From a virus (lineage: Duplodnaviria > Caudoviricetes), in IMG/VR virus record IMGVR_UViG_3300038974_000417, positions 9,312 to 73,311 of that record: 64,000 nucleotides of DNA. One strand, written 5' to 3'. How positions within the stretch are numbered: position 1 is the first letter of the stretch; the number at the start of each line of letters is the position of its first letter. The notes under the pieces were generated by a model that saw only the letters and a list, made by a program, of their open reading frames with translations, had not been told where the DNA came from and did no database searches. This document shows, piece by piece, positions 3 to 64,000 of this stretch. The translations under genes were made by a program, and so were the position numbers.

Positions 3-1130
3 GAAGACACTGTACAAAAATTACAAGAACAATTAAAAAACATTCCAAATAGGCAAAATCTTAAGCATATTTTATTTAAAATCGATCCCAGCTTAGTTAA
101 GTCTATAGAACACCATACATACGGTGTACAGCTCTCTAGAAATACATTTGCAGAAAAAGCTTTTTATCTTATAAATGGAATGCCTCAGGATAATGCTGGA
201 AAAATTAAATATTATTTTGAATCTTTTGATACAGGATACGAGGAACGGTTCAAATATATTAATGAATCTAGGGGTGAGAATGAGGTAAGAAAATGGTTAA
301 ATGGCTTAGGTATTAGGACTGAGAAAAAGAGAATTAATAGATATCTTGAAATTGATATATATATGCCAGATTATAAAATCGGAATAGAATATAACGGTGA
401 GTATTATCACTCTAATTTATTTAAATCTCCTAATTTTCATTTAAATAAAACAGAACGATGTAGAGAACATGGTATAGTATTACTTCATATATTTGATAGT
501 GAATGGGTACAAAGACAGGAAATAATTAAATCTATTATTTTGTCAAAATTAAATTTAATTAAGAAAAAAATATATGCGAGAGAGTGTATCGTACGTAATG
601 TGAGTAGTGCTGAGCGAAAGTTGTTTTTGAATAATAACCATTTACAGGGAAACGACAAGTCATCAATTAGTGTTGGATTATATTATAATGATGAATTGGT
701 GTCAATAATGACGTTTGGTAACCGTAAGATAACAGGAAATACTCAATTTGAACTTCAGCGGTTTTGCAGTAAGCTTAATACTATAGTAATTGGTGGCGCT
801 TCTAAATTATTTTCATACTTTACAAAGACACATGGCAATATGAAGATTGTCACCTATGCAGATAGGAGACTAAGTACAGGTAATTTATATCCAAAACTCG
901 GGTTCACTTTATCTCATTATTCTCCACCTACATATTACTATTTTAAACCTGCTATGGGTGTATATATGAAATTATATCATCGATCCAATTTTCAAAAACA
1001 TATTCTACATAGACGTTTAAGTAGTTTTGACAGTGCCAAGTCGGAAAAGGAGAATATGAGTAATAATGGATATCTTCATGTTTACGATTGTGGTCATATG
1101 GTTTTTAAATATTGTGATTCTGCTCCATAG
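3..1130 (+). CDS. Hef-like free-standing homing endonuclease (PD-(D/E)XK/Vsr-like domain plus C-terminal GNAT-like domain); 5' end lies outside the window
   Basis: The frame is open from base 3 through the ATG at 180. Motifs EIDIYMPDYKIGIEYNGEYYHS, LLHIFDSEW, FELQRFCS, IGGASKLF and TYADRR are typical of phage Hef-like nucleases. Confidence 0.7.
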   Translation, partial: EDTVQKLQEQLKNIPNRQNLKHILFKIDPSLVKSIEHHTYGVQLSRNTFAEKAFYLINGMPQDNAGKIKYYFESFDTGYEERFKYINESRGENEVRKWLNGLGIRTEKKRINRYLEIDIYMPDYKIGIEYNGEYYHSNLFKSPNFHLNKTERCREHGIVLLHIFDSEWVQRQEIIKSIILSKLNLIKKKIYARECIVRNVSSAERKLFLNNNHLQGNDKSSISVGLYYNDELVSIMTFGNRKITGNTQFELQRFCSKLNTIVIGGASKLFSYFTKTHGNMKIVTYADRRLSTGNLYPKLGFTLSHYSPPTYYYFKPAMGVYMKLYHRSNFQKHILHRRLSSFDSAKSEKENMSNNGYLHVYDCGHMVFKYCDSAP

Positions 1131-1137
1131 ATATCGT

Positions 1138-2348: not shown

Positions 2349-3899
2349 ATGGCAGATGTCGTTAGAGTTATAACAGCCGGCAATCCCGGAGATACCCTCA
2401 CCTCTTCAGTTCGAGGAATAGGTGGGGGTGCATTAGGTGCAGCAGCTGCAATGGCTACTCGAGCTACCTCTAATATACCGGGTGCAAATGTTGCAATCGC
2501 TGGTCTTCAGAATATAGCCGGTGATTTTCTACAGGGTGATAGAAATGTTACAGGAATTTATAATGGATTTCTTACTCAAATATTACAAGATTATACTAGT
2601 TCCCCATCTATTATGCCCCTGTGGGTGTGTTATATAGATATAGAAGAAAGAGATAAGATACAATTAGCTGATAAGTTAGATAAAAATAGTGGAGGTAAAC
2701 ATGTCACCACTAGACAGGGATTGCTGGGATTAAGTAGAGGTCAGCATTCGGCGGGAGATTTGGGTAGAGGTTTGGCTTTAATGTTTTGTCAGGGTGTACA
2801 GGTACCATCTGATTCTATATCTGTTAGACGAGATTCTTATAGTAGCGCAATTGGTGGATATATACCAGGATTAATAGGAGATAATAGAAGTCTTAGTGAA
2901 GTTACTATTTCGTTTCTAGAGAATAACGCAAGCTTTACGGATTTCGTTTTAAGGCCTTGGATGATGTATAATTCATATTATGGTATACCCAACGGAATTA
3001 AATCTAATATAATAATTGAAGAATATGTACGTACGTTACCTGATAAACCGTTGAGGTTAAGAAAGAAAATTACTTTACATAAAGCATTTCCAACAACTAT
3101 AGATTCATTAAATTTACGGTATAAAGATACTGCAGATACTAGACAAATTCAGTTTGCATATGAAAGTTATAATATAGAAGAGGGTGGAGATTGGGGAATA
3201 TCTCAGATTAATAAGAATCAATCATTATTGGGTAAATTGGGTGAATTAGCTTTAAATGTAGCAACTGGGCTGGTCAATAAAGAGATTGAAAAGTTTGAAT
3301 CTAATTTATTCTCAATTAAGCCTCAATTAGTTAATATAGAACCACCCGCTACACCCCCATCTGAGGTAGCTAAGCAAAGTGTATCGAACGTTAGTATTAC
3401 TAGCTCAGACCATGCTACACAATCGATTAAATCTCAAATAATAAAAAATATTAAAGATGATACACCTACGTTTGAATTGGTTAATAATAATACCAAAAAG
3501 GTTATTATACCTGCAGAGGATATGATTGATATTACTCAACTGAAAAACATATCTAAGATTGATCAAGTAATTATACCTGAAGCTGATGTTGTCACTGCAT
3601 CTGAAGTTCGAACTGATTATGTAGGAGTTTATCCACCTAAGGAAGACACGCCTACTCTAGCACCATTCAGAAGACCGGATCCTGCTACTATATTGCCACG
3701 TGATGATATGATTTCTAGATCTACTAAAATAGATAAACAATCTGCTATTATTGGTAAAGATGATGAGGCTCTTAAGTCTAGGATAAATGTACAAAAAATA
3801 TCAATTAATAGTAATGATTCTCGTAGAGACAAATCATACATACCTGTTCAAATAATATCTATTGGTACTAATGATTCTCGTGAACTACTAGGTAGCTAA
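2349..3899 (+). CDS. Baseplate/tail-tube junction protein (gp48/gp54-like tube domain) with long low-complexity C-terminus; last codons supplied by an inserted element
   Basis: Tube-like segment EVTISFLENNASFTDFVLRPW...LHKAFPTTI...IQFAYE, in a tail-gene context. The stop codon lies inside the element at 3880-4030. Confidence 0.55.
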   Translation: MADVVRVITAGNPGDTLTSSVRGIGGGALGAAAAMATRATSNIPGANVAIAGLQNIAGDFLQGDRNVTGIYNGFLTQILQDYTSSPSIMPLWVCYIDIEERDKIQLADKLDKNSGGKHVTTRQGLLGLSRGQHSAGDLGRGLALMFCQGVQVPSDSISVRRDSYSSAIGGYIPGLIGDNRSLSEVTISFLENNASFTDFVLRPWMMYNSYYGIPNGIKSNIIIEEYVRTLPDKPLRLRKKITLHKAFPTTIDSLNLRYKDTADTRQIQFAYESYNIEEGGDWGISQINKNQSLLGKLGELALNVATGLVNKEIEKFESNLFSIKPQLVNIEPPATPPSEVAKQSVSNVSITSSDHATQSIKSQIIKNIKDDTPTFELVNNNTKKVIIPAEDMIDITQLKNISKIDQVIIPEADVVTASEVRTDYVGVYPPKEDTPTLAPFRRPDPATILPRDDMISRSTKIDKQSAIIGKDDEALKSRINVQKISINSNDSRRDKSYIPVQIISIGTNDSRELLGS

Positions 3900-4030
3900 A
3901 GCTACGCTAGCTTCGAGTTTAAAGCTTTTACTCTGGTCTGATTCACATTGAGACCCATTCAACACCGTAAAATATCAAAATATAACAACATCCAAAAATG
4001 ATTCACAACGACAGGGAGATTCAATTAAAA
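3880..4030 (-). mobile_element. Non-autonomous IS200/IS605-type element B (about 151 bp)
   Basis: On - it ends AAAGCTTTAAACTCGAAGCTAGCGTAGCTTTAGCTACCTAGTAGTTCAC, homologous to element A with compensatory stem changes. The left boundary after TTAC (4031-4034) is inferred from ORF restoration. Confidence 0.7.
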
Positions 4031-4104
4031 GTAAGATAATAGAATCTCCAATCACTGATGTAAATAATAGTTGAACAACTTTTATATATGTATAAGTATA
4101 TTAT

Positions 4105-4962
4105 ATGAACACTACTAATATTGATATTAAATCCCTTTTAAATACATTAGATACTATTAACACTAAAAACTATGCATTTCATGTATATGTACCATCTCTA
4201 CAAAAAGATATACCGTTTCTACAGATAAGTACTAGTCAGCAAAAGTCATTAATTAAATCTGTTATTGATTCACCGGTATATAATACAGAATTTATATATA
4301 CTATACGTAGTATTATAAAAGATAATTGTCTGGATAAAGAGGTTAGCATTGATGAATTAACGCTACTTGATAAATTAGTTATATGTTTAGCTCTTCGAAG
4401 TAAGAGTATTAGTAGTACGTATGAATTTTCATATACTCATGAAGGAGCAGAGTTAAAATATAATATTGAATTGGATTCGTTAATTGAGGCATCTAAATCT
4501 ATAGATATTGAATTAGAGAGAGTCATAGAAACTCAAGACTATAAAATAACTACACGAGTTCCTACTATTGGTATTGAATATCAAGTAGAAAAAGAATTGA
4601 GATCAAAAAACCGCCAAAATAATGAAAATATTCAAAACAGTGAACAGCTTCGTGATATAGTAGGAGAAGCGTTTATGACTGAATTAATAAAATATATTAA
4701 ATGTGTAGAAATTCCACGAGGGGATACCGAGGTATTTAAGATAGAAATGAGTAATATGTCCCCTAAGGATGGTATTAGTATTTTGGGTAAATTCCCGATT
4801 AAAGTGCTTGAGAGTATATTAGATTTTGTTAATGATTATAGTCGGAGTATTAGTAATATAACTAAGATTAAAGTTCCTGGTGGAGTAAATACCGAAACAA
4901 ATGAAGTTGAATTCATAGAACAGGAGATTCCGATTAACGGGAATTTTTTTATAATTTCTTAA
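4105..4962 (+). CDS. Baseplate hub assembly protein (T4 gp26-like)
   Basis: VYVPSLQKDIPF..ISTSQQKSL and LTLLDKLVICLALRSKSI match the gp26 pattern (x.PS..K.I.FRP...K; D..Y..L.LR..SI). Followed by a gp51-like gene and the tape measure. Confidence 0.7.
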   Translation: MNTTNIDIKSLLNTLDTINTKNYAFHVYVPSLQKDIPFLQISTSQQKSLIKSVIDSPVYNTEFIYTIRSIIKDNCLDKEVSIDELTLLDKLVICLALRSKSISSTYEFSYTHEGAELKYNIELDSLIEASKSIDIELERVIETQDYKITTRVPTIGIEYQVEKELRSKNRQNNENIQNSEQLRDIVGEAFMTELIKYIKCVEIPRGDTEVFKIEMSNMSPKDGISILGKFPIKVLESILDFVNDYSRSISNITKIKVPGGVNTETNEVEFIEQEIPINGNFFIIS

Positions 4963-16667: not shown

Positions 16668-16679
16668 AAGTATATTTAC

Positions 16680-16727
16680 ACTCTTTAGCTGAGAAAGCTA
16701 GGATGGCTTAGCCACCTAGTAGTTCAC
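16680..16727 (+). mobile_element. Miniature IS200/IS605-type element C (48 bp)
   Basis: TTAC|ACTCTTTAGCTGAGAAAGCTAGGATGGCTTAGCCACCTAGTAGTTCAC. Hairpin CTAGG-A-TGGC-TTA-GCCA-CCTAG; same TAGTAGTTCAC end as element B. Confidence 0.7.
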
Positions 16728-26672: not shown

Positions 26673-29267
26673 TTAACTGAATAATGCAAGTAGATTATTT
26701 GCATATGTTATATTAAAGTCTTGGATAGGCCATCCAATACAATCATATAATCGATCAACTGCGGGCCTAATAATCTTGTTAAACATTTTTACATAATCCG
26801 GTTTAATATTGAATTCCTCGGGTAGATTAGCTATATAACTTAAACACTTAATATCGTATTTATTAGCGTCACAATAAAACCATTTAATTTTATTTCCGGA
26901 TGTAATAGATTCGTATTTATTATCTAATTTTAATATTTTAATTAAATTATTATAGTATATAGACCCCTTTACATGAGCGGGTGTACCTTTACCTATTCTA
27001 AACCCCTCACTACTATTTTCGTATTTACTGTAGTTATTAATACTAGATCTAAAGCAAATTTTATCTATATCTAAAGTTTTAAACTGTTCAAATATATCGT
27101 GATATATTTCATTTGTTTTGTTTATATCTCTAGTTTTAATTATAGTATTAATAACACTTCGTATAAGTACCTTTACTTCTTCAGATATTACACTCCGAGC
27201 AATCTCAACCCCCACAAACTTTAATTTATCACATGGTATACCCTCATCATCTAATATATGAAGAATATAGCGTTTCTTTTGCTGAAATATTCCTACATCG
27301 CATATCGCTTCTCTCTTAAATATAAATCTACTATTAATTGTGTTAAGTGTGCTTGTCGCCCAACTAGTAATATGGTTATTAAGATATTCACCCAATTCGT
27401 TTATTATATCATGAGATTGTTGAGATATATCATTACCATCAAGTAATTTGATATTAAGTTTATCCAATATTGGTTTAATAGTAATATAAACCGAATCTGT
27501 ATCATTATATATAGTTAAATCGGTTGATATGTCGTATTTTTCTTTAGCAAATTGTCTTACTATTTCGCTTGATTGCTTTACAGTGGCTTGACCTGTGAGA
27601 GTAATACTACTAGCTGCATCGATATCATAGAATGGGCTATGTCTGTTCCCGAATGTACCGTATATACTATTCAGTAGAGTTTTGATAGCACGTTGAGACA
27701 TATCAAGTTTTAATATTTCTCGTTCTAATTGTATACGCTCGTTTATACTATCAGTATCTTTATTGTTTTCATTTTGATTCTTAGCCATTAATTTATTTAA
27801 TTGAGCTAGTTGACGCTTTTTACTCTTCATATTCTTTTGAATGCCTACTCGCTCTTTATAGAGGTTTTCGATCATTTCTGGACAAAATCCCATAGTCTTT
27901 TGAGAATATAATACTTTGGCTTTGCTAATACTGAGTTGTTCTTTTTTAATGAATGCGGTTAGCTTCTCTGGGGATAGTGTGTATTTTTCACCAGAAACTA
28001 GTTGGACTGTTATTCCATTGCTATTCTTGCTCAGTATTTTACCCACCTTGGTTTCTGGACTAATATTGAGAGTAATTATTGTGTTGGGATATAGACTATT
28101 TGCATCAAAACTTACTACTGACTCTTTTATACCTCTGCTTGGGTCTTTTACAAATCCCCCGGCGTAGTCGGATTTAATACTATGCTTAAACGTTGGTATT
28201 ATTAATTTCTTCCTGCGAGCTTGTTGTGCCATTGCGCCTGTTACTATACTGATAGTACCAAGTGCTGCCTCAAAATTAGTCAGTCCTTTATATGCAATAG
28301 CTCTAACAAAGTTGATAAATTGAAGTTTATCATCAAGTTTTACTACAATTGAAACATCTTGGATGTTATAGTTAACAAAGGTTTCCCAGTCGCTGTCAGC
28401 CAACTTACTTAAATCTGTAGCATTATATTTGATTTTACCTTCACCAAGCTCTAATTCACCTATGAAGTTTAAATTATAGCTTTCTCTATCACCTCGAGAG
28501 AACTTTTTATATATATCTAAATAATCAATACAACTTACGCCGTTTATATACCATCTACCCATTTCCTTGCCGAAATCAGTTGGTATTCCTGGACGAAACC
28601 ATATATTACCTACAGGGCTCAATTTAGAGGCTTCCTCTTCTCCAAGTAAAGCGGTTATTCGATTAATTATATATGGTATATCAAATCCGATAATATTCCA
28701 CCCAGTAACAATGTCGTATTCTTCTGCTTGCCAGTGAGTTATAAATGAATTAAGTAGGGATTGTTCGCTATCACATTTAATATATATCACATCTGGATTT
28801 TTAGATATGTAGTTATTTTTTAATCCCCAAGAATAATACTTCTTTTTTATACTGTTATATATGGTGATAATATTAACTGGATGTTTTGCTTCTTCTGGTT
28901 TAGGAAATTCGTTAGCATATACTTCAATATCTATAAATCCGATCTTTAACTCATCTTTAGCAAAATCAGGAGAGTTATTTAAGTCGCTATAGTGATCAAT
29001 TAGAAATTGTTGATCTGGCGCTATATTATAAAATAATCGTGATATTCCACCTTCATTGGCAAACTTGCGACGTTCATATTGATTTGTAAACTCTATCTTT
29101 TTAAGGTCTGTATTGTATATACTTTTTCCGTCTTTACCATTTCGAGATTCTACATATAGATATGGCTTAAATGGAATTTTTTCATATATTCGATCTCCTG
29201 ATTTATTCCATTTCCATAGATGAATAGCTCTCGCTCTACTATCATAATATACATGCCTATAACTCAT
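26673..29267 (-). CDS. Family B DNA polymerase (T4 gp43-like)
   Basis: Exonuclease DIEV, GWNIIGFDIPY, YNIQD; polymerase SFDANSLYP, KTLLNSIYG, YNDTDS, KKRY. Confidence 0.95.
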   Translation of the reverse strand: MSYRHVYYDSRARAIHLWKWNKSGDRIYEKIPFKPYLYVESRNGKDGKSIYNTDLKKIEFTNQYERRKFANEGGISRLFYNIAPDQQFLIDHYSDLNNSPDFAKDELKIGFIDIEVYANEFPKPEEAKHPVNIITIYNSIKKKYYSWGLKNNYISKNPDVIYIKCDSEQSLLNSFITHWQAEEYDIVTGWNIIGFDIPYIINRITALLGEEEASKLSPVGNIWFRPGIPTDFGKEMGRWYINGVSCIDYLDIYKKFSRGDRESYNLNFIGELELGEGKIKYNATDLSKLADSDWETFVNYNIQDVSIVVKLDDKLQFINFVRAIAYKGLTNFEAALGTISIVTGAMAQQARRKKLIIPTFKHSIKSDYAGGFVKDPSRGIKESVVSFDANSLYPNTIITLNISPETKVGKILSKNSNGITVQLVSGEKYTLSPEKLTAFIKKEQLSISKAKVLYSQKTMGFCPEMIENLYKERVGIQKNMKSKKRQLAQLNKLMAKNQNENNKDTDSINERIQLEREILKLDMSQRAIKTLLNSIYGTFGNRHSPFYDIDAASSITLTGQATVKQSSEIVRQFAKEKYDISTDLTIYNDTDSVYITIKPILDKLNIKLLDGNDISQQSHDIINELGEYLNNHITSWATSTLNTINSRFIFKREAICDVGIFQQKKRYILHILDDEGIPCDKLKFVGVEIARSVISEEVKVLIRSVINTIIKTRDINKTNEIYHDIFEQFKTLDIDKICFRSSINNYSKYENSSEGFRIGKGTPAHVKGSIYYNNLIKILKLDNKYESITSGNKIKWFYCDANKYDIKCLSYIANLPEEFNIKPDYVKMFNKIIRPAVDRLYDCIGWPIQDFNITYANNLLALFS

Positions 29268-29302
29268 ATTATTATGGTATTATATAAACAGTAAGAATTC
29301 AA

Positions 29303-30589
29303 TTATATAATTTCGGGATTTAATCTTTTTAGCGCTGGACGAGGTTCGTTAGCTGATTTAAAATACATTTCACAGTGTTCGTCTATTCTGTCTTCTAGCC
29401 ACATGGAATCAGCGTATTTACGGACCTTTTTACACATGTTAATGTATTGACTCTGGTCTTTGAGTAGATACTCTATTTGAGATATCATTTCTTCTCCAGT
29501 TTTAAATTTGATGGGGCAGTCTTTGTATGTCACCATGTCTTGACATATTGCTGGAATTCCCAACATTGCAGGTTCGAGATATTTAATATTACTTTTTGCT
29601 CTATTAAATTCACAATCTATTAATGGTGCGATTACACAGTTTACGTCTAAGTTATCTATACCAACTGGATATTCAAGAATGGGGCTCCAGTTTACATATT
29701 CCATTATACCTCTATCAATAAACGGTTTAACTTTAAGAGGAAAACCACCCATAAATACCCACTTAAACTTATTTCTAGTTGATATAATATAATCTACTAC
29801 GTGTGCAAAATCATCTATTTGATTCGTTTTGTTTTGAATGTCAAAATGAGTACCAGATCCACAATAACCTATTCTGGGTCGTTTTTTATGAATATTATAT
29901 CGTTTACCCAGTTTATTAATGTCATATAACCTATCTCCCCAATACCGAGGAGGGTAGTTAGGTATTACTCTAATATTACTGTTACCTGTTTTCTTGATAT
30001 AATATTGTTTCATGTATTCGCATGTAACAGTGATTTCATCTGCAATATTCATCATTTCTAATACACTGGCTACTATTCGATCATCTAAAAATGCTTCCTT
30101 ACATCTATTAAAGTCTGGAATATCATCTTTAAAAATAATATCATCTACTTCGTATACTACTTTACCTCCAGTATCATTCATTACCTTTTTAACACACTTA
30201 AAAAAATCAAGCTGCTGTGGTGTAGCTTGACGTTGAAACTTAACGCATTTTAGGCCGTTTTTGTAATAGTTAGCATCACCGATCATACTGGTCATTCCCA
30301 TGATAACACCTTTTTGGTATCCGTTTATCACAGTTTCTGGCCAAATCATTCTCCAGAAGCCACATCCACCATAATCAGCATGGTAGTTTAAGGCCCTGGG
30401 TAGACCGTGACCCGGAAGAGGTATCGGGGGAGGAGTAAAGTTGTGAATTACAGGGATTATTTTGTTAATTACCGGTTGAGATCCAGGAATACCTGGGACT
30501 GAGAGACCTAGGGTCGCCGGCTCATATCTGATGGATGGTTTATTATCAGATGTTATTTGACAATTATGTTGATTTTTAAATTTTAGCAT
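29303..30589 (-). CDS. Glycosyltransferase (GT-B fold) adjacent to the DNA polymerase
   Basis: YEVDD, IRVIPNY, RIGYCGSGTH, IAPLIDCEFNRAKSNIKYLE, GIPAI. ATG 30589 preferred over 30625. Confidence 0.75.
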   Translation of the reverse strand: MLKFKNQHNCQITSDNKPSIRYEPATLGLSVPGIPGSQPVINKIIPVIHNFTPPPIPLPGHGLPRALNYHADYGGCGFWRMIWPETVINGYQKGVIMGMTSMIGDANYYKNGLKCVKFQRQATPQQLDFFKCVKKVMNDTGGKVVYEVDDIIFKDDIPDFNRCKEAFLDDRIVASVLEMMNIADEITVTCEYMKQYYIKKTGNSNIRVIPNYPPRYWGDRLYDINKLGKRYNIHKKRPRIGYCGSGTHFDIQNKTNQIDDFAHVVDYIISTRNKFKWVFMGGFPLKVKPFIDRGIMEYVNWSPILEYPVGIDNLDVNCVIAPLIDCEFNRAKSNIKYLEPAMLGIPAICQDMVTYKDCPIKFKTGEEMISQIEYLLKDQSQYINMCKKVRKYADSMWLEDRIDEHCEMYFKSANEPRPALKRLNPEII

Positions 30590-30630
30590 GTATATTATTA
30601 TATATATTAATTTGTTAAAAATCAACGGCT

Positions 30631-32427
30631 ATGAAGAAGATAATTTTTAAGAACATAAGAGTGTGTAATTTTTTATCTATTGGATCTAGAGAGATTAAAT
30701 TAGATTTTACTCCTGGTATAAATTTAATAACTGGTATAAATTTAGATAAAGAAGATACTGGAAACGGGAGTGGTAAATCAAGCTTAGTCAATTCTATATA
30801 TTTTGCTTTATATGGCAGAACTTTGAAGGATTTAAAGGTAGATAAAATTCCTAATAGTTTTACTAGAGGACCATGTCGGGTGACTCTGGATTTTGATGTA
30901 TGTCATAATAATAATTTTACTTCTTATTCGGTTATTAGATCTCTCCGCCCTACTAAATTAAAAATATTAAGGGATGGGGAGGATATTACTAAGAGTACTA
31001 TTATTCAGACTACCGAGTTATTGCAGGATATTATTAGTTGCTCTAGTACGGTTTTTGAAAATAGTATAGTAATGGATGCTAATAGTGCTACCAATTTTAT
31101 GTCCCAGAAGAAGGTAGAAAAGCGTAAATTCTTAGAGGGTATTTTAAATCTTACAATATTTGGTGAGATGTTGAGTATTGCTCGAGCTGATTATAATGAT
31201 GCACGATATCAGTTTGATATAGAAAACGCAAAGCTTCAGTCTGAGGTTTCAGCTCTTGATAATTATAGGAAACAATTAGACAGACAGAAGAGCGTAAGGG
31301 ACGAGAGACGTGAGGAATTACAGGGTAGAATTAATGAGATATCTAAGGAGATGGAGTCTTTAAGTAGTAACATTAAAAGCATTCCATCTGATGAAGAGTT
31401 GGGGGTTATAAAATCTAAATGTAGTAAATTGGATGATGCTCTGTCTACCAATCGATTAAATTATAAGAAGTTAATCAAGTTGGAGGCTGAGGTGAATCAG
31501 TCCAAGAAGCATTTGATGGAGAGGCTTGATAAGTTAATTAATTTACCTAATGAGTGTGTGGAGTGTGGTCGTTCATTTTCTGACGAGGATCGAAGGGTGG
31601 TGGGGGATGAGTGCGCGAAGATGAGGGTTGATATATCGGATATCACTAATAAAATTTCGGACGTTAGGAATCAAATTGGTGTAATTGAGGATCAATATAA
31701 AAAAATAGAACAGGGTAAGTTGTTATTATCTCAAAAGCAGAATAATATTAAGGCCTCTGAGAAGCATAATGAAACCGTTAATTGGCGAATTATGCAATTA
31801 TCTAAAACTCTTGATACTTTGCATAAGGATTTGATTGCAGTTGATAGGGACGATTCTGGGTTGACGGATACTATATCTAGTATATCTAAAAAGGTAGATG
31901 GTATACGGGAGACGGTCAACCGGTTGAATGTTAAGATGGATATATTAAAATCTTCTAAATTTATTTTATCAGAAGAGGGTATTCGTAGCTTTATAGTTAA
32001 GAGAATTTTACGAATACTTAATAGTAAGTTGAATATGTATTTAGCCAAGTTAGATGCTAATACTAGATGTGAATTTAATGAATACTTTGAGGAGTCTCTT
32101 TGGGATATATCTGGTAATGAGAGAAGTTATTATAATTTTAGCAATGGGGAACAGCGCCGAATAGACTTGGCTATTCTTTTTGCATTTCAAGATATTCGTC
32201 GTTTACAGGCTGATGTGGATATGAATATTAGTATATATGACGAACTGTTGGATAGTAGTTTGGATAGGAGGGGGTCAGAGCTGGTGATTGCTTTGTTAAA
32301 AGAGCGGGCTGATAAAAATAAGGAGTGTGTATATATAGTTAGTCATCGTAAGGAAGCTCAATCTAGTTATACTAATAAAGTTGTTACGTTACAGAAGAAG
32401 AATGGTATAACTACTCTGGTAGACTAG
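30631..32427 (+). CDS. SbcC/Rad50-like recombination ATPase (T4 gp46-like)
   Basis: NFLSIG, Walker A GNGSGKSS, central CxxC hook (CVECG), signature FSNGEQRRIDLA, IYDELLDSSLD, IVSH. Confidence 0.92.
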   Translation: MKKIIFKNIRVCNFLSIGSREIKLDFTPGINLITGINLDKEDTGNGSGKSSLVNSIYFALYGRTLKDLKVDKIPNSFTRGPCRVTLDFDVCHNNNFTSYSVIRSLRPTKLKILRDGEDITKSTIIQTTELLQDIISCSSTVFENSIVMDANSATNFMSQKKVEKRKFLEGILNLTIFGEMLSIARADYNDARYQFDIENAKLQSEVSALDNYRKQLDRQKSVRDERREELQGRINEISKEMESLSSNIKSIPSDEELGVIKSKCSKLDDALSTNRLNYKKLIKLEAEVNQSKKHLMERLDKLINLPNECVECGRSFSDEDRRVVGDECAKMRVDISDITNKISDVRNQIGVIEDQYKKIEQGKLLLSQKQNNIKASEKHNETVNWRIMQLSKTLDTLHKDLIAVDRDDSGLTDTISSISKKVDGIRETVNRLNVKMDILKSSKFILSEEGIRSFIVKRILRILNSKLNMYLAKLDANTRCEFNEYFEESLWDISGNERSYYNFSNGEQRRIDLAILFAFQDIRRLQADVDMNISIYDELLDSSLDRRGSELVIALLKERADKNKECVYIVSHRKEAQSSYTNKVVTLQKKNGITTLVD

Positions 32428-32611
32428 AGATTGCCCAAAAAATCTTTAAAGCTGTCGAATGTTTTAGATGAAGTATTTTTAATAGCTTCATATTCATTTG
32501 ACTTTTTAATAAATGCACTATTTGCTTCATGTTCACCCATTTTTTTACCTATTTGAGTGGGTAACCATTCATTCAATCTATGTTGTAGTTCTTCTAATAT
32601 AACCGACTTAT

Positions 32612-32902
32612 TGTTTCTTGCAAAAGAAAACCATGATGCTTCAGCACATGGATGAATTTTGCCAGCTTTATTGTTTATATTAAATTAATTTGCTAAAAAG
32701 CAAGAAAATTTAGCTGGTTAGCATAAATAATTATAGGTATAAACAACATATATCTTTCGGTATATGGATGAGGTGAAAGCCTAGAAGATATAAAACCAAA
32801 CGTTTTGGTACCCTGAAGAGGTTAATCTGTGGCAGTGAATCCACCTTGAGCGCCTTAAAGCTCTAAACTGAAGCCAGTGCGCTTTAGCCACTGGTTGTTC
32901 AC
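32612..32902 (+). mobile_element. Non-autonomous IS200/IS605-type element, copy A' (291 bp), identical to copy A
   Basis: Preceded by TTAT (32608-32611). Left hairpins TTTCTT-GCAA-AAGAAA and CCATG..CATGG; internal CATAAATA (32722-32729); right-end hairpin and GTTCAC. Confidence 0.85.
32735..32902 (+). ncRNA. Putative TnpB omegaRNA (reRNA) scaffold, about 168 nt; mirrored at 1138-1305 on -
   Basis: Series of hairpins. The loop GTGAA (32835-32839, in stem GTGG/CCAC) is complementary to the terminal TTCAC, as expected for the omegaRNA pseudoknot. The 5' end is inferred from the internal late promoter. Confidence 0.55.
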
Positions 32903-32962
32903 TCATTGTATTAATACTCCTTGTACGGCCTTTTATTATATTTATATATTCTAAATATTTGA

Positions 32963-33250
32963 ATGAAGAGGAAGTATAGGAGATTGCTTAATCGATCTGG
33001 ATTAGAGAAATGTGAGATATGTGGTAGAGAGGGAATTTTAGTACAGCATCATATCCGTGGTAGGAATATCCCTAATGCCAATCATCCGAGCAATTTAGCT
33101 AACATATGTCCCAACTGTCATGCTGATATACATAATGGTATTATTATATTAGAAGACTGGGTGATGACCACCGGTGGATATGAATTATTATATCATCATT
33201 ACAAAGAACCTAGTTTAACTGGTAATGATGCTAAGCCTTGGTTAATTTAA
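32963..33250 (+). CDS. Small HNH endonuclease
   Basis: CEICG, QHHIRG, NHPSNLANICPNCHADIH; TAAATA 5 nt upstream of the ATG. Confidence 0.8.
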   Translation: MKRKYRRLLNRSGLEKCEICGREGILVQHHIRGRNIPNANHPSNLANICPNCHADIHNGIIILEDWVMTTGGYELLYHHYKEPSLTGNDAKPWLI

Positions 33251-43806: not shown

Positions 43807-43823
43807 TTATATCAACTTAGACA

Positions 43824-43858
43824 GATCAATCGGTTTTCCCAGCTGATGAATATAAATA
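43824..43858 (-). repeat. Degenerate copy of miniature element D plus late promoter
   Basis: 31/35 identity to 50673-50707 (GATCAATCGGTTTTCyCAGyyGAwGAATATAAATA); lacks the GTTCAC terminus. Confidence 0.6.
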
Positions 43859-50651: not shown

Positions 50652-50700
50652 GTGAACTACTGTTTGACTAAAGATCAATCGGTTTTCTCAGTCGAAGAAT
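50652..50700 (-). mobile_element. Miniature IS200/IS605-type element D (49 bp)
   Basis: On -: TTAT|ATTCTTCGACTGAGAAAACCGATTGATCTTTAGTCAAACAGTAGTTCAC. Same length class, CTGAGAAA core, TTTAG loop and AGTAGTTCAC end as element C. Confidence 0.65.
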
Positions 50701-50731
50701 ATAAATATTCTCGGAGACTATAACCCGAGGA
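50700..50731 (+). promoter_or_regulatory. Late promoter TATAAATA followed by an SD-sequestering hairpin
   Basis: TTCTCGG (50708-50714) pairs with CCGAGGA (50725-50731), which contains the SD for ATG 50740. Confidence 0.55.
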
Positions 50732-60592: not shown

Positions 60593-62395
60593 ATGGCAGA
60601 TTATAATAATACAATTAATAGACCAATTAGTCCAGCGGCTAGTACAGGTGGATATGCTGGTCCTAACAGTCAAAAATTTCTAGGTACTTTATTAGCTAGA
60701 CTTCCGTTTAGCTATAGTTTTATTAACAAGATGTATGATAGTAATCCATACTTTAATACATTTTATAAAACCGGTACGTCACGTGAAGATAAAGTAGCTG
60801 CTAAAAGTGTATTTTATGGTGATAGATCTACTACCGGTGGGATGATGGTCGATAAGGGCTATAATGATTTTATATATGCTAAAGTAGATTCAAATAAAAT
60901 TCGCCGCATCCAGGACTATAGACGAATGGCAGCATATTATGTAGTAAGTGATGCATTAGATGAAATATGCGATGAGTGTATTAGTGAAAATGATAAGGGT
61001 GAAATAGTTAATTGTGATATAAATGGAACGTTTGCAGAGCCGATTATACGAGAGCTAAAAAAAGAATGGACCAAATTCTCATCATTATTTGATTTAAAAG
61101 AAAAGGGATACAATTATTTCAGACAATGGCTAATAGATGCAGAGTTATTTTTTGAAAACGTATTAGATGGTAAGAAACCCGAAAAGGGAATAGTTGGTGT
61201 AATATTACTTCCGCCAGAATTAATTAATCCTGTGTATGATAATTTACAAAATGAAATTATACGTCAATTTATATTAAGAAAACCGTCACCGATTGTAACT
61301 AATACTGAGCAAGAAGAAAAGATCATATTAGAAACAAATCAAATAACTTATATTAATAGTGGTATATGGAATGAAGATAAAACCATTAGAATGCCATATA
61401 TCGAAAATTGTAGAAAGGCATATAAGCAATTAAGTCTAATAGAAGATACCTTAATATTATATCGTTTATCTAGAGCCCCACAACGTTTGGTCTTCAATGT
61501 AGAGATGGGTAACATGGATACACCTAAAATGGAGGCATATCTTAAGCGATTAATGCAGCAAATGTGGAGTAGAAGAAGTTTCAATAATAGGGACGGTCAG
61601 ATTACTAATGCGTATGATACACATAACATGTTAGAGGCATACTTTTTTGCAAAAAGAAATGGACAGGGTACAGACGTTGAAAATCTAGAAACTAATTCCA
61701 ATTTAGGAAATCTTGAAGACCTTTTACACTTTAAAAAGAATCTATATAATTCACTAAAGGTTCCAGTGGGAAGATTGGATCCAGCTACTGTAGTAGGTTC
61801 TGGTGGACCTGAAGTTACTCGCGAAGAATTAAGATTCGCTAAGTTTATCATGAGACTTCAACGTCAATTTGCGCAAGGAATGAAAAAGTCATTCATCACC
61901 CACTTAAAGCTGAAGGGAATGTGGAAGAGGTTTTCATTAAAAGAAAATAATATATTTATAAAGTTTAATACGCCTACAAATTTCCAAGAGATGCGCGATA
62001 ATCAACTGTTTGAAATTAAACAAAATCAATTTAATCTTATGACTCAAAACCCGACGATAAGTCCTACATATAGTATGAAGCGTTATTTGAAGTGGGACGA
62101 TGCGGATATTAAAGCTAACCGCGCTTGGGTAAGAAGAGATGCTGCATTTATGTGGGAGATTGAAAAGATTAAGAGCGAAGGTCCTAATTTCCGCGAACAG
62201 GGTGCTGAATTGGATGATGCTATAGCAGAATTACAGAGTAATTCTACTGGCAGTGGTACATCTACTGGATCTCCACCAGAATTTGGAATATCTCCCGAGA
62301 CATCACCAGAAACTCCCGGTGCAACACCAGAAACACCAGAAGCCCCACCACCGACGGAACCTTCACCAGCTCAATCCTCCCCACCTTCAGCATAA
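60593..62395 (+). CDS. Portal protein (T4 gp20-like)
   Basis: DALDEICDE, FRQWLIDAELF, QLSLIEDTLILYRLSRAPQRLVFNVEMGN, MLEAYFFAKR, LKVPVGRL, REELRFAKFIMRLQ. Confidence 0.92.
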   Translation: MADYNNTINRPISPAASTGGYAGPNSQKFLGTLLARLPFSYSFINKMYDSNPYFNTFYKTGTSREDKVAAKSVFYGDRSTTGGMMVDKGYNDFIYAKVDSNKIRRIQDYRRMAAYYVVSDALDEICDECISENDKGEIVNCDINGTFAEPIIRELKKEWTKFSSLFDLKEKGYNYFRQWLIDAELFFENVLDGKKPEKGIVGVILLPPELINPVYDNLQNEIIRQFILRKPSPIVTNTEQEEKIILETNQITYINSGIWNEDKTIRMPYIENCRKAYKQLSLIEDTLILYRLSRAPQRLVFNVEMGNMDTPKMEAYLKRLMQQMWSRRSFNNRDGQITNAYDTHNMLEAYFFAKRNGQGTDVENLETNSNLGNLEDLLHFKKNLYNSLKVPVGRLDPATVVGSGGPEVTREELRFAKFIMRLQRQFAQGMKKSFITHLKLKGMWKRFSLKENNIFIKFNTPTNFQEMRDNQLFEIKQNQFNLMTQNPTISPTYSMKRYLKWDDADIKANRAWVRRDAAFMWEIEKIKSEGPNFREQGAELDDAIAELQSNSTGSGTSTGSPPEFGISPETSPETPGATPETPEAPPPTEPSPAQSSPPSA

Positions 62396-63127
62396 ATGAC
62401 AACATTACATCAATTTGTCACAGATAGAATATATAAAAATCGACTTTCCCCAAAATTTTGGGACGAAAACTTATATTTCGATGGTGATACTAGAATAAAA
62501 CTGCTTGAAATAGCTAAAGATTTCACTGACAGTTTGGGAATTACGCGATATATTAAGGATATCATATTAACCGGTAGTTTAGCTAACTATAACTATACAA
62601 GACACTCGGATTTAGACGTTCATATATTATTAGATTTTACTGATATAGATCAAAATAAGGTTTTAGTTAAAACTGCATTGGATGGCAAACGGTTTATGTG
62701 GAATATTAAACACAATATTATTATGAAAAAGCATGAAGTAGAGTTATATTTTCAAGATATAAATGAACCTCATATAGCATCTGGAGTGTTTAGTATACAA
62801 GACAATAAATGGATTAAGCGACCTAAGTATGATCCACCGGAAGTAGATGAAAAATACGTAGAGATGAAGGCAAATCAAATTAAACTTGATATAGTTTTGT
62901 TAAAAAATAAGCTTAATAGTGCGAATGATGAAGCAGATTTTAAAGAGCTACATGATAAATCCGTAAAGTATAGAGAAAAGATACTAAAAATGCGTAGAGA
63001 TTCTTTGAGGCTTAAGGGAGAATATGGGATTGGTAACCTAGTATTTAAACAATTGAGAAATGGTGGATATATAAAAGAAATTATAGACATAAGTAATATT
63101 GCTTATGATAAAATATTTAGTATTTGA
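62396..63127 (+). CDS. Pol-beta-superfamily nucleotidyltransferase
   Basis: DIILTGSLANYNYTRHSDLDVHIL, EVELYFQD, GVFSI, GNLVFKQLRNGGY. Confidence 0.8.
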   Translation: MTTLHQFVTDRIYKNRLSPKFWDENLYFDGDTRIKLLEIAKDFTDSLGITRYIKDIILTGSLANYNYTRHSDLDVHILLDFTDIDQNKVLVKTALDGKRFMWNIKHNIIMKKHEVELYFQDINEPHIASGVFSIQDNKWIKRPKYDPPEVDEKYVEMKANQIKLDIVLLKNKLNSANDEADFKELHDKSVKYREKILKMRRDSLRLKGEYGIGNLVFKQLRNGGYIKEIIDISNIAYDKIFSI

Positions 63128-63139
63128 TAAATATTGGTA

Positions 63140-63222
63140 TGAGTAACCGACTCGTGAGAGTCCAGATCAATCGAATTGATCCAGCGATATATTCGCCGTT
63201 TAATATTAGAACCAGTTACTCA
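63140..63222 (+). ncRNA. Putative multi-branch structured 5' leader RNA
   Basis: Closing stem TGAGTAAC/GTTACTCA encloses hairpins GACTC-GTGA-GAGTC, GATCAAT-CGA-ATTGATC and GCGA-TATAT-TCGC, plus a weak fourth hairpin. Confidence 0.55.
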
Positions 63223-63233
63223 AAGGAGATATT

Positions 63234-64000
63234 ATGGCAGATATTATATGGAGCAGAGGATATTCACCAGCAGAAGCTGAACGTGGTAAGTTTGTAGCAT
63301 TAGATGAAACAACACTCACTGATTTACCTTCTAGTAGTAGAGGTAGATATGCGATAGTTACCTGTGATATAGCAGGAACAGATTCTAGCGGAGCAGTATT
63401 AGGTACTTCGGCTAATCCAATGCATACTACAATAACCACTATTGTTAGTAATGTAGAGGTGGATGTCACTGGTATAATGTTAAATGAAACTATAAGTGCC
63501 GTTAATTGCACGGTTAGTACGTTTGAAACTAATCCTATTACATCTATAAGTGCTATTCAAATGGGTGAATGGAATATAGGCGCTTTAACTGATATTATTA
63601 GTACAGTAAATGTCAGTGAAGTTAATCCCGTTACGGCTGTTGACGTAATTAATACAGTAAATGTCAGTGAAGTTAATCCTGTTACGGCTGTTGACGTAAT
63701 TAATACAGTAACGGTTCAAGAGAATAGTGCAATTCGGGTGATCATGACTAAGGATTTAACCATTCCTAATACAGTATGGATTGGTAGTTCTAGCTTAGCT
63801 GCCGGAGTAGAATATGTTCCTTCATTAGCAAATGAGTTATTAGAAATAGAAATCCAGAATAAGACTGAAGGTCCTGTTTATTTCTTAGCCTCTGCAACTG
63901 ATTATATAGGAGTTGAATCAAACGGAATTACAATTGAATCAGATACATTTTATTCAACAAGAAAATATATCTCTGAATTTACTATAGGAAGTCTATCTGG
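63234..64000 (+). CDS. Probable virion structural protein, 3'-truncated by the window end (absent from the ORF track)
   Basis: AAGGAG SD; open frame MADIIWSRGYSPAEAERGKF... to base 64000; Val/Thr/Asn-rich beta repeats. Confidence 0.7.
   Translation, partial: MADIIWSRGYSPAEAERGKFVALDETTLTDLPSSSRGRYAIVTCDIAGTDSSGAVLGTSANPMHTTITTIVSNVEVDVTGIMLNETISAVNCTVSTFETNPITSISAIQMGEWNIGALTDIISTVNVSEVNPVTAVDVINTVNVSEVNPVTAVDVINTVTVQENSAIRVIMTKDLTIPNTVWIGSSSLAAGVEYVPSLANELLEIEIQNKTEGPVYFLASATDYIGVESNGITIESDTFYSTRKYISEFTIGSLS
63602..63711 (+). repeat. 51-bp (17-aa) tandem repeat, two copies plus a partial copy
   Basis: 63602-63652 versus 63653-63703, one synonymous mismatch (CCC/CCT); TVNVSEVNPVTAVDVIN. Confidence 0.9.

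Follow-up and report, generated by a model that had tools for sequence, protein, structure and literature searches.

A protein-less IS200/IS605 mini-transposon with a predicted omegaRNA scaffold moves within a T4-like phage population

The window, by which we mean the entire 64,000-nt stretch of DNA analysed here, spans positions 9312-73311 of an IMG/VR contig of 73,311 bases whose completeness is estimated at 35%. Its gp46-like, portal, gp15-like, sheath and terminase genes are those of a T4-like phage, and the size of the phage genome is estimated at ~200 kb. The gp46-like protein is only 27% identical to that of the closest cultured phage, and we draw no inference about the host from it. 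Relatives of this protein in IMG/VR, at 32-61% identity, are too distant for the comparison of empty sites. The metagenomes from which the lineage comes are of digester, sludge and landfill types, and DNA of this phage is present in SRR21487925, SRR21487923, SRR24332396, SRR32971144 and the study to which GCA_033813915.1 belongs.

Two positions in the window, 1138-1432 and 32608-32902, form an inverted pair of repeats that are 100% complementary over 295 nt and consist of a 291-nt element together with the TTAT that precedes it. This is the only such pair, and the flanks of the two copies (termed A and A', respectively) differ from 32903 on the + strand and from 1137 on the - strand. Mini-elements of the same type (A-type) occupy at least 12, and probably 18, distinct sites, and their copies are 96-100% identical. 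An identical repeat of 295 nt at two sites, accompanied by copies of 96-99% identity at ~12-18 sites in other contigs, is not due to chance. The features of the element, its flanks and related sites in the window are as follows.

32612-32902, + strand: copy A' of the 291-nt element, assigned to the non-autonomous IS200/IS605 elements (PATEs); defined by the repeat search and precisely missing from 99.8%-identical contigs
1138-1428, - strand: copy A, identical to A'; an empty allele is present in L088
32608-32611, + strand: TTAT target of A', the presumed TAM; the empty alleles L095, L096 and L097 join TTAT directly to 32903 onward
1429-1432, - strand: TTAT target of copy A, within a late-promoter-like octamer of the empty allele; L088 reads TATAAATA across the joint
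32903-32920, + strand: flank giving the predicted A' guide; the same sequence follows TTAT in L095, L096 and L097
1120-1137, - strand: flank giving the predicted copy A guide; its first 16 nt are replaced in L088
32612-32753, + strand: left module, with 75% identity to L004 3289-3444 and L008 11949-12093, upstream of tnpA
32627-32630, + strand: left-end TnpA guide tetranucleotide AAAA, from the AAAA/TTAT pairing rule
32631-32651, + strand: left-end hairpin, with compensatory stem changes between variants a and b
32722-32729, + strand: promoter-like box CATAAATA, matching 7/8 of the T4 late consensus, 173 nt before the element end
32747-32766, + strand: hairpin S1, homologue of the first hairpin in the scaffold that overlaps tnpB; same loop and covarying stem in full elements; located at the deletion junction
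32771-32809, + strand: ~55 nt unique to the A-type mini-element, with a second GTGAA-containing hairpin and a hairpin at 32795-32809
32829-32844, + strand: hairpin S2, whose loop GTGAAT is invariant and is proposed to form a pseudoknot with the element's final five bases; four stem versions, compensatory
32848-32863, + strand: hairpin S3; a G-C pair is replaced by A-U in L059 and L060, a compensatory change
32870-32902, + strand: right end, comprising the guide tetranucleotide GAAG, the right-end hairpin and the tail; nine hairpin versions, all complementary
32874-32894, + strand: right-end hairpin (within the right end), TTTA loop at -20 to -17
32895-32902, + strand: 8-nt tail TTGTTCAC, ending in the cleavage motif TCAC
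32427-32906, - strand: 63-codon late gene split by A'; ATG at 32906-32904, with a ribosome binding site and TATAAATA further upstream; the intact gene is at 4294-4485 (- strand) of L096
~3880-4095, - strand: element B, derived from a related tnpB element and now decayed; it has a different version of the right-end hairpin, a 23-codon TnpB remnant, and the GTGAA loop on a different stem
63126-63127, - strand: empty target site in the window; 99%-identical L054 has a 292-nt A-type copy exactly here

No protein-coding gene is found inside the element: tblastn with TnpA and TnpB gave no match, and the only internal ORF is a 41-codon frame on the minus strand that overlaps the right end. Subterminal imperfect hairpins are present on both sides, and terminal inverted repeats are absent. 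An earlier note on this DNA had described two 100%-identical 291-bp copies, each after TTAT, that end in a hairpin followed by TTGTTCAC, and the repeat search and the positions listed above agree with it. They also bear out its GTGAA loop complementary to the terminal five bases, which is that of hairpin 32829-32844 and is kept on another stem in element B, and its internal CATAAATA at about 170 nt from the end (173 nt as measured).

The parent family of the element was sought by a scan of IMG/VR for the right-end hairpin, which returned 11 loci, and by a looser right-end pattern, which added three viral loci and 56 metagenome loci. At one of the 11 loci, L004, a 372-codon tnpB and a 138-codon tnpA precede a right end that matches the mini-element. 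Pfam assigns the tnpA product to Y1_Tnp (1e-39) and the tnpB product to Cas12f1-like_TNB (1e-20) and OrfB_IS605. Full elements with the same right end are also present at L008, L015, L016 and ~20 metagenome loci. The mini-element shares its last ~40 nt with L004, and over the last 45 nt mini- and full elements are identical. Full tnpB genes occupy ~20 distinct sites at 77-93% identity, and the RuvC motifs of the family align with those of solved TnpB and Cas12f chains. Some of these sites have tnpA on the same strand, some have a distant tnpA on the opposite strand, and many are without it; tnpA and tnpB occur together with homologous left and right ends at L004, L008, L082 and L085. Phages in GenBank contain no DNA similar to the 291-nt element. 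When genome contigs were scanned for the right-end pattern, L029 proved to be a chance match, and L030, where a 3.7-kb contig from a Crocinitomicaceae MAG ends in a hairpin resembling the right end, offers too little for host assignment. A TnpB relative of 59% identity lies on a contig labelled as a Methanogenium MAG, from which, as a binned contig, no host conclusion is drawn.

Comparison with the full elements reveals how the mini-element is composed. Its left ~145 nt have their homologue in L004 and L008, where it comprises the left end and the sequence preceding tnpA, and its right ~150 nt are homologous, on the tnpB strand, to the 3' end of tnpB and the right end in alignments that include 20 distinct tnpB 3' ends. 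The deletion junction lies at a short shared motif before hairpin S1. Given the homology of both modules to full elements and the presence of this junction, an internal deletion has fused the left end and promoter region of the IS to its RNA scaffold and right end. Other deletion derivatives that arose independently are L031 (with 102 tnpB codons left), L035, L068 and element B of the window, and the spectrum of this family in one T4-like phage lineage extends from full tnpA-tnpB elements through tnpB-only elements to 291-nt and 48-nt derivatives. Single-hairpin units of 48-49 nt with the same tail are also present in the window. The 291-nt element is almost certainly a PATE of this IS200/IS605 family. 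Derivation from a TnpB-bearing IS200/IS605 element is implied in the earlier note and holds for both modules, and cognate tnpB genes with the same right end exist in related phage contigs. The note's description of a stand-alone guide-RNA cassette would fit the right part, which is a homologue of the scaffold formed by the tnpB 3' end and right end, but taken as a whole the element is a non-autonomous transposon in complete form, in which a TnpA guide tetranucleotide and a hairpin mark the left end.

The ends of the family follow a simple rule of guide and target. Among 26 distinct left ends with three types of hairpin, AAAG is paired with TTAC in 16/16 and AAAA with TTAT in 10/10, the latter set including both copies in the window, so that the rule holds for 26 of 26. 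Right ends in the family have GAAG in front of the hairpin and TCAC as their last four bases. Uninterrupted sites were found in sister contigs for 16 insertions, and TTAC or TTAT always stands directly before the right flank. Insertion occurs 3' of the tetranucleotide, target duplications are lacking and the empty sites are scarless. A 17th flank match, to L039, was discarded as a palindromic artefact. Shorter versions of the element begin just after TTAT sites internal to it, and they too are preceded by TTAC or TTAT. Excision and insertion of the 291-nt element as single-stranded DNA would be carried out by a Y1 transposase (TnpA) provided in trans.

Contigs nearly identical to the window were retrieved by exact-protein look-ups of neighbouring genes; in IMG/VR, no match was obtained with exact 22-mers that joined TTAT to each of the predicted guides or with a 26-mer beside site A. 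L096 and L097 are 99.8% identical to positions 28133-32612 of the window and then continue straight on at 32903, with A' precisely absent and with TTAT followed by the exact 18 nt of the predicted A' guide. At the same site L095 is a second empty allele and L093 is filled. The intact 63-codon gene in L096 and L097 reveals that A' split this gene just after its ATG; a pattern search found no relatives of the gene. The site at 63126-63127, empty in the window, is the one filled in L054, which is 99.1% identical to positions 60707-63404. In L088, with 98.4% identity over 11 kb, the copy A site is empty and the joint restores TATAAATA; this contig itself starts within a further A copy located just past the start of the window's contig. 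With three sites polymorphic among near-identical contigs, the element is moving within the phage population, and it has moved recently within this very phage.

Two of these contigs carry alleles that are altered at the target. At the copy A site, L088 is identical at 40/40 nt on the TTAT side and at 44/44 nt beyond position 16 on the other, and the 16 nt that abut the right end, which equal the span of a 16-nt guide, have given way to 14 nt that cannot be aligned. Frame and stop of the upstream gene are preserved. Only four blocks of such density occur in the 11-kb alignment, which puts a coincidence with the target at ~1 in 100. L094, which is 99.8% identical, has neither the element nor TTAT at the A' site; a single C is present instead, the gene that A' splits is in frame, and the TAM is gone. 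The guides predicted in the earlier note are matched for A', whose target with TTAT is present in empty alleles at 99.8% identity, but the only empty allele of copy A mismatches its guide. L088 and L094, being two cases, are no more than suggestive: they could be escape alleles under RNA-guided cutting or re-insertion, or footprints of imprecise loss or patchy recombination.

The predicted omegaRNA scaffold occupies the last ~100 nt of the full elements, where four hairpins (S1, S2, S3 and the right-end hairpin) all vary by compensatory changes. The mini-element keeps all four and has ~55 nt in addition, which form a second GTGAA hairpin and one more hairpin. Every stem substitution among six distinct versions of the A-type module preserves pairing; stem 32795-32809 has three versions that all pair, one of them through a U-G pair that is possible on the top strand only. 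The sequences that carry this covariation are few (6 A-type and 20 full elements). In two comparisons between mini-element variants, identity is 98% and 88% in the right module versus 77% and 63% in the left. TnpA requires only the two ends, and the better conservation of the right module therefore points to selection on the RNA, although module recombination could contribute to the asymmetry and the high conservation could in part reflect recent spread rather than selection. The GTGAA of the S2 loop could pair with the five bases that close the element, to which it is complementary. For this proposed pseudoknot covariation is absent because both partners are invariant, and the tail is also constrained by TnpA cleavage. 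The scaffold insertion of ~55 nt could impair TnpB binding.

Directly upstream of the scaffold, the promoter-like box of the mini-element lies ~18 nt before S1. Full elements have the same box, with the same six or seven following bases, upstream of tnpB (12 nt from the ATG) or of tnpA (~42 nt from the ATG). There are three types of left end, and wherever the left end of a full element is readable the box is kept, the exceptions being L037 and L047, which are of the type with tnpA opposed; in L039 it is a perfect TATAAATA located 12 nt before the tnpB ATG. Within the window, 12/49 sites of ATAAATA lie at most 60 nt upstream of starts, versus 3.3% expected, and ATAAATA is the most start-proximal of 21 composition-matched 7-mers. 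The simplest reading of this pattern is that the IS family has adopted a promoter of the T4 late type, and we infer that the box may be used and that its use would be late in infection. The earlier claim that the cassette carries its own phage late promoter is right in that the promoter-like box is real and conserved, but the cassette did not acquire it: the box belongs to the IS family, in which it stands upstream of tnpA or tnpB.

A tblastn search of the 73-kb contig (the window and the other 9.3 kb) with the cognate TnpB and TnpA revealed no tnpA or tnpB, the only match being the 23-codon TnpB remnant in element B; this remnant aside, the result agrees with the earlier note, which saw neither protein in the window. 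Five other fragments that carry mini-elements likewise have no tnpA or tnpB, and the contig and these fragments, from genomes of about 200 kb, are 9-35% complete. A full tnpB element and a mini-element are present on the same contig in L008, L055 and Ga0255345_1000869, and the cognate TnpB proteins of related phage contigs have intact RuvC motifs. L078 is a tnpB-only element with an AAAA/TTAT left end. A tnpB gene of 82% identity is also found in L101, a phage-like contig from an assembly with a neighbouring accession; L101 and L098-L100 do not overlap the window's contig.

The explanation that we favour, and regard as fairly probable overall, is that the element is a PATE with ends mobilised by TnpA and with an omegaRNA expressed from the box, for which TnpB acting in trans provides retention and possibly homing. 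The box would drive synthesis of a top-strand RNA in which ~165 nt of the element are followed by 16-20 nt of flank, and this RNA would serve as the omegaRNA. The source of TnpB could be a full element, located either in another part of the genome or in a phage that co-infects the cell. Together with the RNA of the element, it would cut alleles that lack the element and present TTAT and the target, and the recombination machinery of the phage would then copy the element back, which would retain it after excision and might allow it to home into naive genomes during co-infection. Retention and homing guided by TnpB have been demonstrated in bacterial chromosomes and plasmids. The specific step in which the RNA of the element is made and used by TnpB in trans we judge, on the sequence evidence, to be evenly balanced.

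The main competitor to this explanation is an inert mini-transposon that can still be mobilised, whose RNA-like part is a leftover of the deletion, provides no functional guide and goes unused by TnpB. The lack of tnpB in the contig and in the five other carrier fragments, the ~55-nt insertion relative to the scaffold of full elements, the copy identity of 96-100%, which may mean that conservation is a matter of youth, and the disruption of a gene by A', as would be done by a purely selfish element, all fit this view. It accounts poorly for the much stronger conservation of the right module, relative to the left, in variants whose end hairpins differ, for the few substitutions of the right module being all compensatory, and for a promoter box placed ~18 nt before the first scaffold hairpin, and on balance we consider it somewhat unlikely. 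At the other extreme, the mini-transposons could be RNA-guided homing cassettes, from whose drive L094, by loss of its TAM, and L088, by rewriting of its 16-nt target, would have escaped. We think this stronger proposal unlikely.

Other functions for the element were also considered. The solo scaffold might act as a decoy or competitor that absorbs or redirects the TnpB of rival elements or phages, for which solo guide RNAs on protein-less phages and satellites provide a precedent (VIPR preprint) and for which it may be relevant that A-type copies share sites with full elements. Nothing in the sequence separates this role from ordinary use in trans, however, since the guide is the flank as in any IS605 element, and we consider it quite improbable. 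The orientation of the A' box toward an HNH gene at 32963, and the frequent position of insertions next to a late-promoter core in reverse orientation, with an ATAAATA core left in place, could be taken to indicate a domesticated, portable promoter or regulatory cassette that drives, for example, the downstream HNH gene or preserves the late-promoter core. Yet genomes that are 99% identical differ in whether they contain the element, A' has destroyed the start of a gene and copy A points into a convergent gene, which together make a regulatory function very improbable. The fold of the element is more stable than that of shuffled controls (z = -3.2), as might be seen if its likeness to an IS end were superficial and it were an unrelated structured RNA (an intron, a ribozyme or the gene of an sRNA). 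This possibility is effectively refuted by homology to both ends of tnpA-tnpB elements and by precise empty sites of the transposon type, and Rfam 15 contains no match for the element at gathering score or at E values up to 10. The intron, ribozyme and known sRNA readings were dropped after nothing relevant was found in Rfam at either the gathering or the permissive thresholds.

Palindrome-associated transposable elements (PATEs) often encode omegaRNAs that need TnpB in trans (Meers et al., PMC10055086), and examples are known from Geobacillus stearothermophilus (PMC10055086) and Haloquadratum walsbyi (PMC3119063). Like the element in the window, they are without protein genes and bounded by left- and right-end hairpins of the IS200/IS605 type; they are mobilised in trans, as this element would be. 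In contrast to PATEs of cellular chromosomes, the element described here resides in a T4-like phage of the virulent type, has the phage-late-type box of its family fused directly to the scaffold and ~55 extra nt, and occurs in a set of near-identical phage genomes whose alleles are filled, empty or altered. IS608 of Helicobacter pylori, whose TnpA uses the same relation between left guide and target, resembles the family in this rule: insertion 3' of TTAC and a guide AAAG 5' of the left-end hairpin are shared, and the guide-target relation, which can be re-set in IS608, has natural AAAA/TTAT variants here. At the right end, GAAG goes with TCAC in the window family and GAAT with TCAA in IS608. 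The window family, unlike IS608, is hosted by a phage and has many members without tnpA.

A close parallel for the RNA is the omegaRNA of ISDra2, in which a UUUA tetraloop lies at -20 to -17 and positions -6 to -2 form a pseudoknot (PMC10097598). Overlap of the scaffold with the tnpB 3' end, a stop at the right-end boundary and the position of the terminal tetraloop are shared (PMC10097598). In ISDra2 the bases just 5' of the guide pair upstream, and the window element is predicted to be capable of the same; the proposed partner is a hairpin loop ~65 nt upstream here versus ~100 nt in ISDra2. The two have no sequence similarity, and their TAMs are TTAY (presumed) here and TTGAT in ISDra2. Phages and satellites that are VIPR-null keep solo vrRNAs after loss of the effector and use the effector of another element (bioRxiv 10.64898/2026.10.15.759431). 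Those RNAs work with another effector family and another recognition code and lead to silencing, and the solo loci arise by deletion in place, whereas the window element is a transposing unit.

TnpB genes are frequent in phages (PMC12607003), and co-infected phages have been listed as theoretical targets of TnpB homing (2026 review, PMC13565253). With PATE omegaRNAs and the idea of homing in phages already published, no new mechanism is put forward here. The value lies in where the element is found: an IS605 family has adapted to a phage of the lytic type and is active there, with defined filled, empty and altered alleles in genomes that are 98-99.8% identical. This natural system, with its defined guides, TAMs and target alleles, could show whether a protein-less guide cassette drives super-Mendelian inheritance between phages and whether phages evolve escape at the TAM or the target; if the RNA is inert, the locus would remain a clear case of single-strand transposition that took place recently in the genome of a lytic phage. 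The outcome proposed is the same as for the free-standing Seg and Mob homing endonuclease genes of T-even phages and for 'transposon non-restorative homing' (PMC13565253), in that the element-free allele would be broken and repaired from the genome that bears the element. The predicted difference from Seg and Mob is that an RNA would guide recognition and that the nuclease would be provided in trans.

Near-identical relatives of the window carry empty or altered alleles of sites that are occupied by A-type elements, the protein-less 291-nt IS200/IS605 derivatives. The window itself has an empty target site at 63126|63127, where a 99%-identical contig (L054) carries an A-type insertion. This insertion breaks ORF 62396-63127 within its stop codon, and an ATAAATA core, of the late-promoter type, lies directly after the insertion point. 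An empty allele of the copy A site is found in L088 (10821-10834, compared with window 1122-1137), in which the 16 nt that match the predicted guide have been rewritten. The sequence flanking this block is identical to that of the window on both sides, and only four such blocks occur in 11 kb. For site A′ there is a third allele (L094:1-40, compared with window 32586-32920), wherein a single C replaces the element and its TTAT; the split gene is in frame and the TAM is gone.

Past the HNH gene, gene content diverges between the window (33254 onward), which has a Glf-like gene, and the 99.8%-identical contig L096 (4833 onward), which has an epimerase-type gene. This switch is a mosaic boundary adjoining a homing-endonuclease-type gene. 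In contig bases beyond the window, a terminase large-subunit gene of 915 codons (L014:2675-5422) contains a LAGLIDADG-type insert, probably an intein.

The sequence TATTTAY, which is the late-promoter core reversed, is present at approximately 10 of 26 insertion sites, far above the expectation based on composition. Sites of this type are the following:

1426-1436, window
16673-16679, window
50701-50707, window
63127-63133, window
junctions in the loci L012, L007 and L052

The excess may reflect either a longer TnpA preference or the survival of insertions at gene boundaries.

Shorter versions of the A-type element (229-236 nt) are found in the loci L042, L067, L083 (6090 site) and L007. These lack the left-end hairpin and start right after internal TTAT sites of the element, and at several sites they are still preceded by TTAC or TTAT, which suggests that alternative left cleavage sites are in use. 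Locus L060 has an A-type copy on its minus strand (about 763-1070) that resides within the left end of another family member, inserted at the TTAT immediately past the promoter box of its host element. The copy has the same right flank as a full element of L049, and therefore one site is common to different family members.

A related tnpB element has left a decayed derivative in the window:

3880-4095, minus strand, element B

Element B retains the last 23 TnpB codons, the scaffold hairpins S2 and S3, and another version of the right-end hairpin; on its right-end side it overlaps with the final codons of plus-strand ORF 2349-3899.

Only two cellular-labelled relatives were found, and neither is sufficient for naming the host: L030, the end of a Crocinitomicaceae MAG contig (binned, 3.7 kb) with a right-end-like hairpin, and P0136, a TnpB of 59% identity encoded on a binned contig of 22 kb that is labelled as a Methanogenium MAG.

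Units made of a single hairpin, 48-49 nt long and preceded by TTAC or TTAT, lie at these window positions:

16680-16727, plus strand, ending in the family right-end tail
50652-50700, minus strand, ending in the same tail
43823-43851, minus strand

Guide and target are AAAG and TTAC in unit D, and AAAA and TTAT in unit E, and thus both obey the IS608-like guide-target rule of the family.
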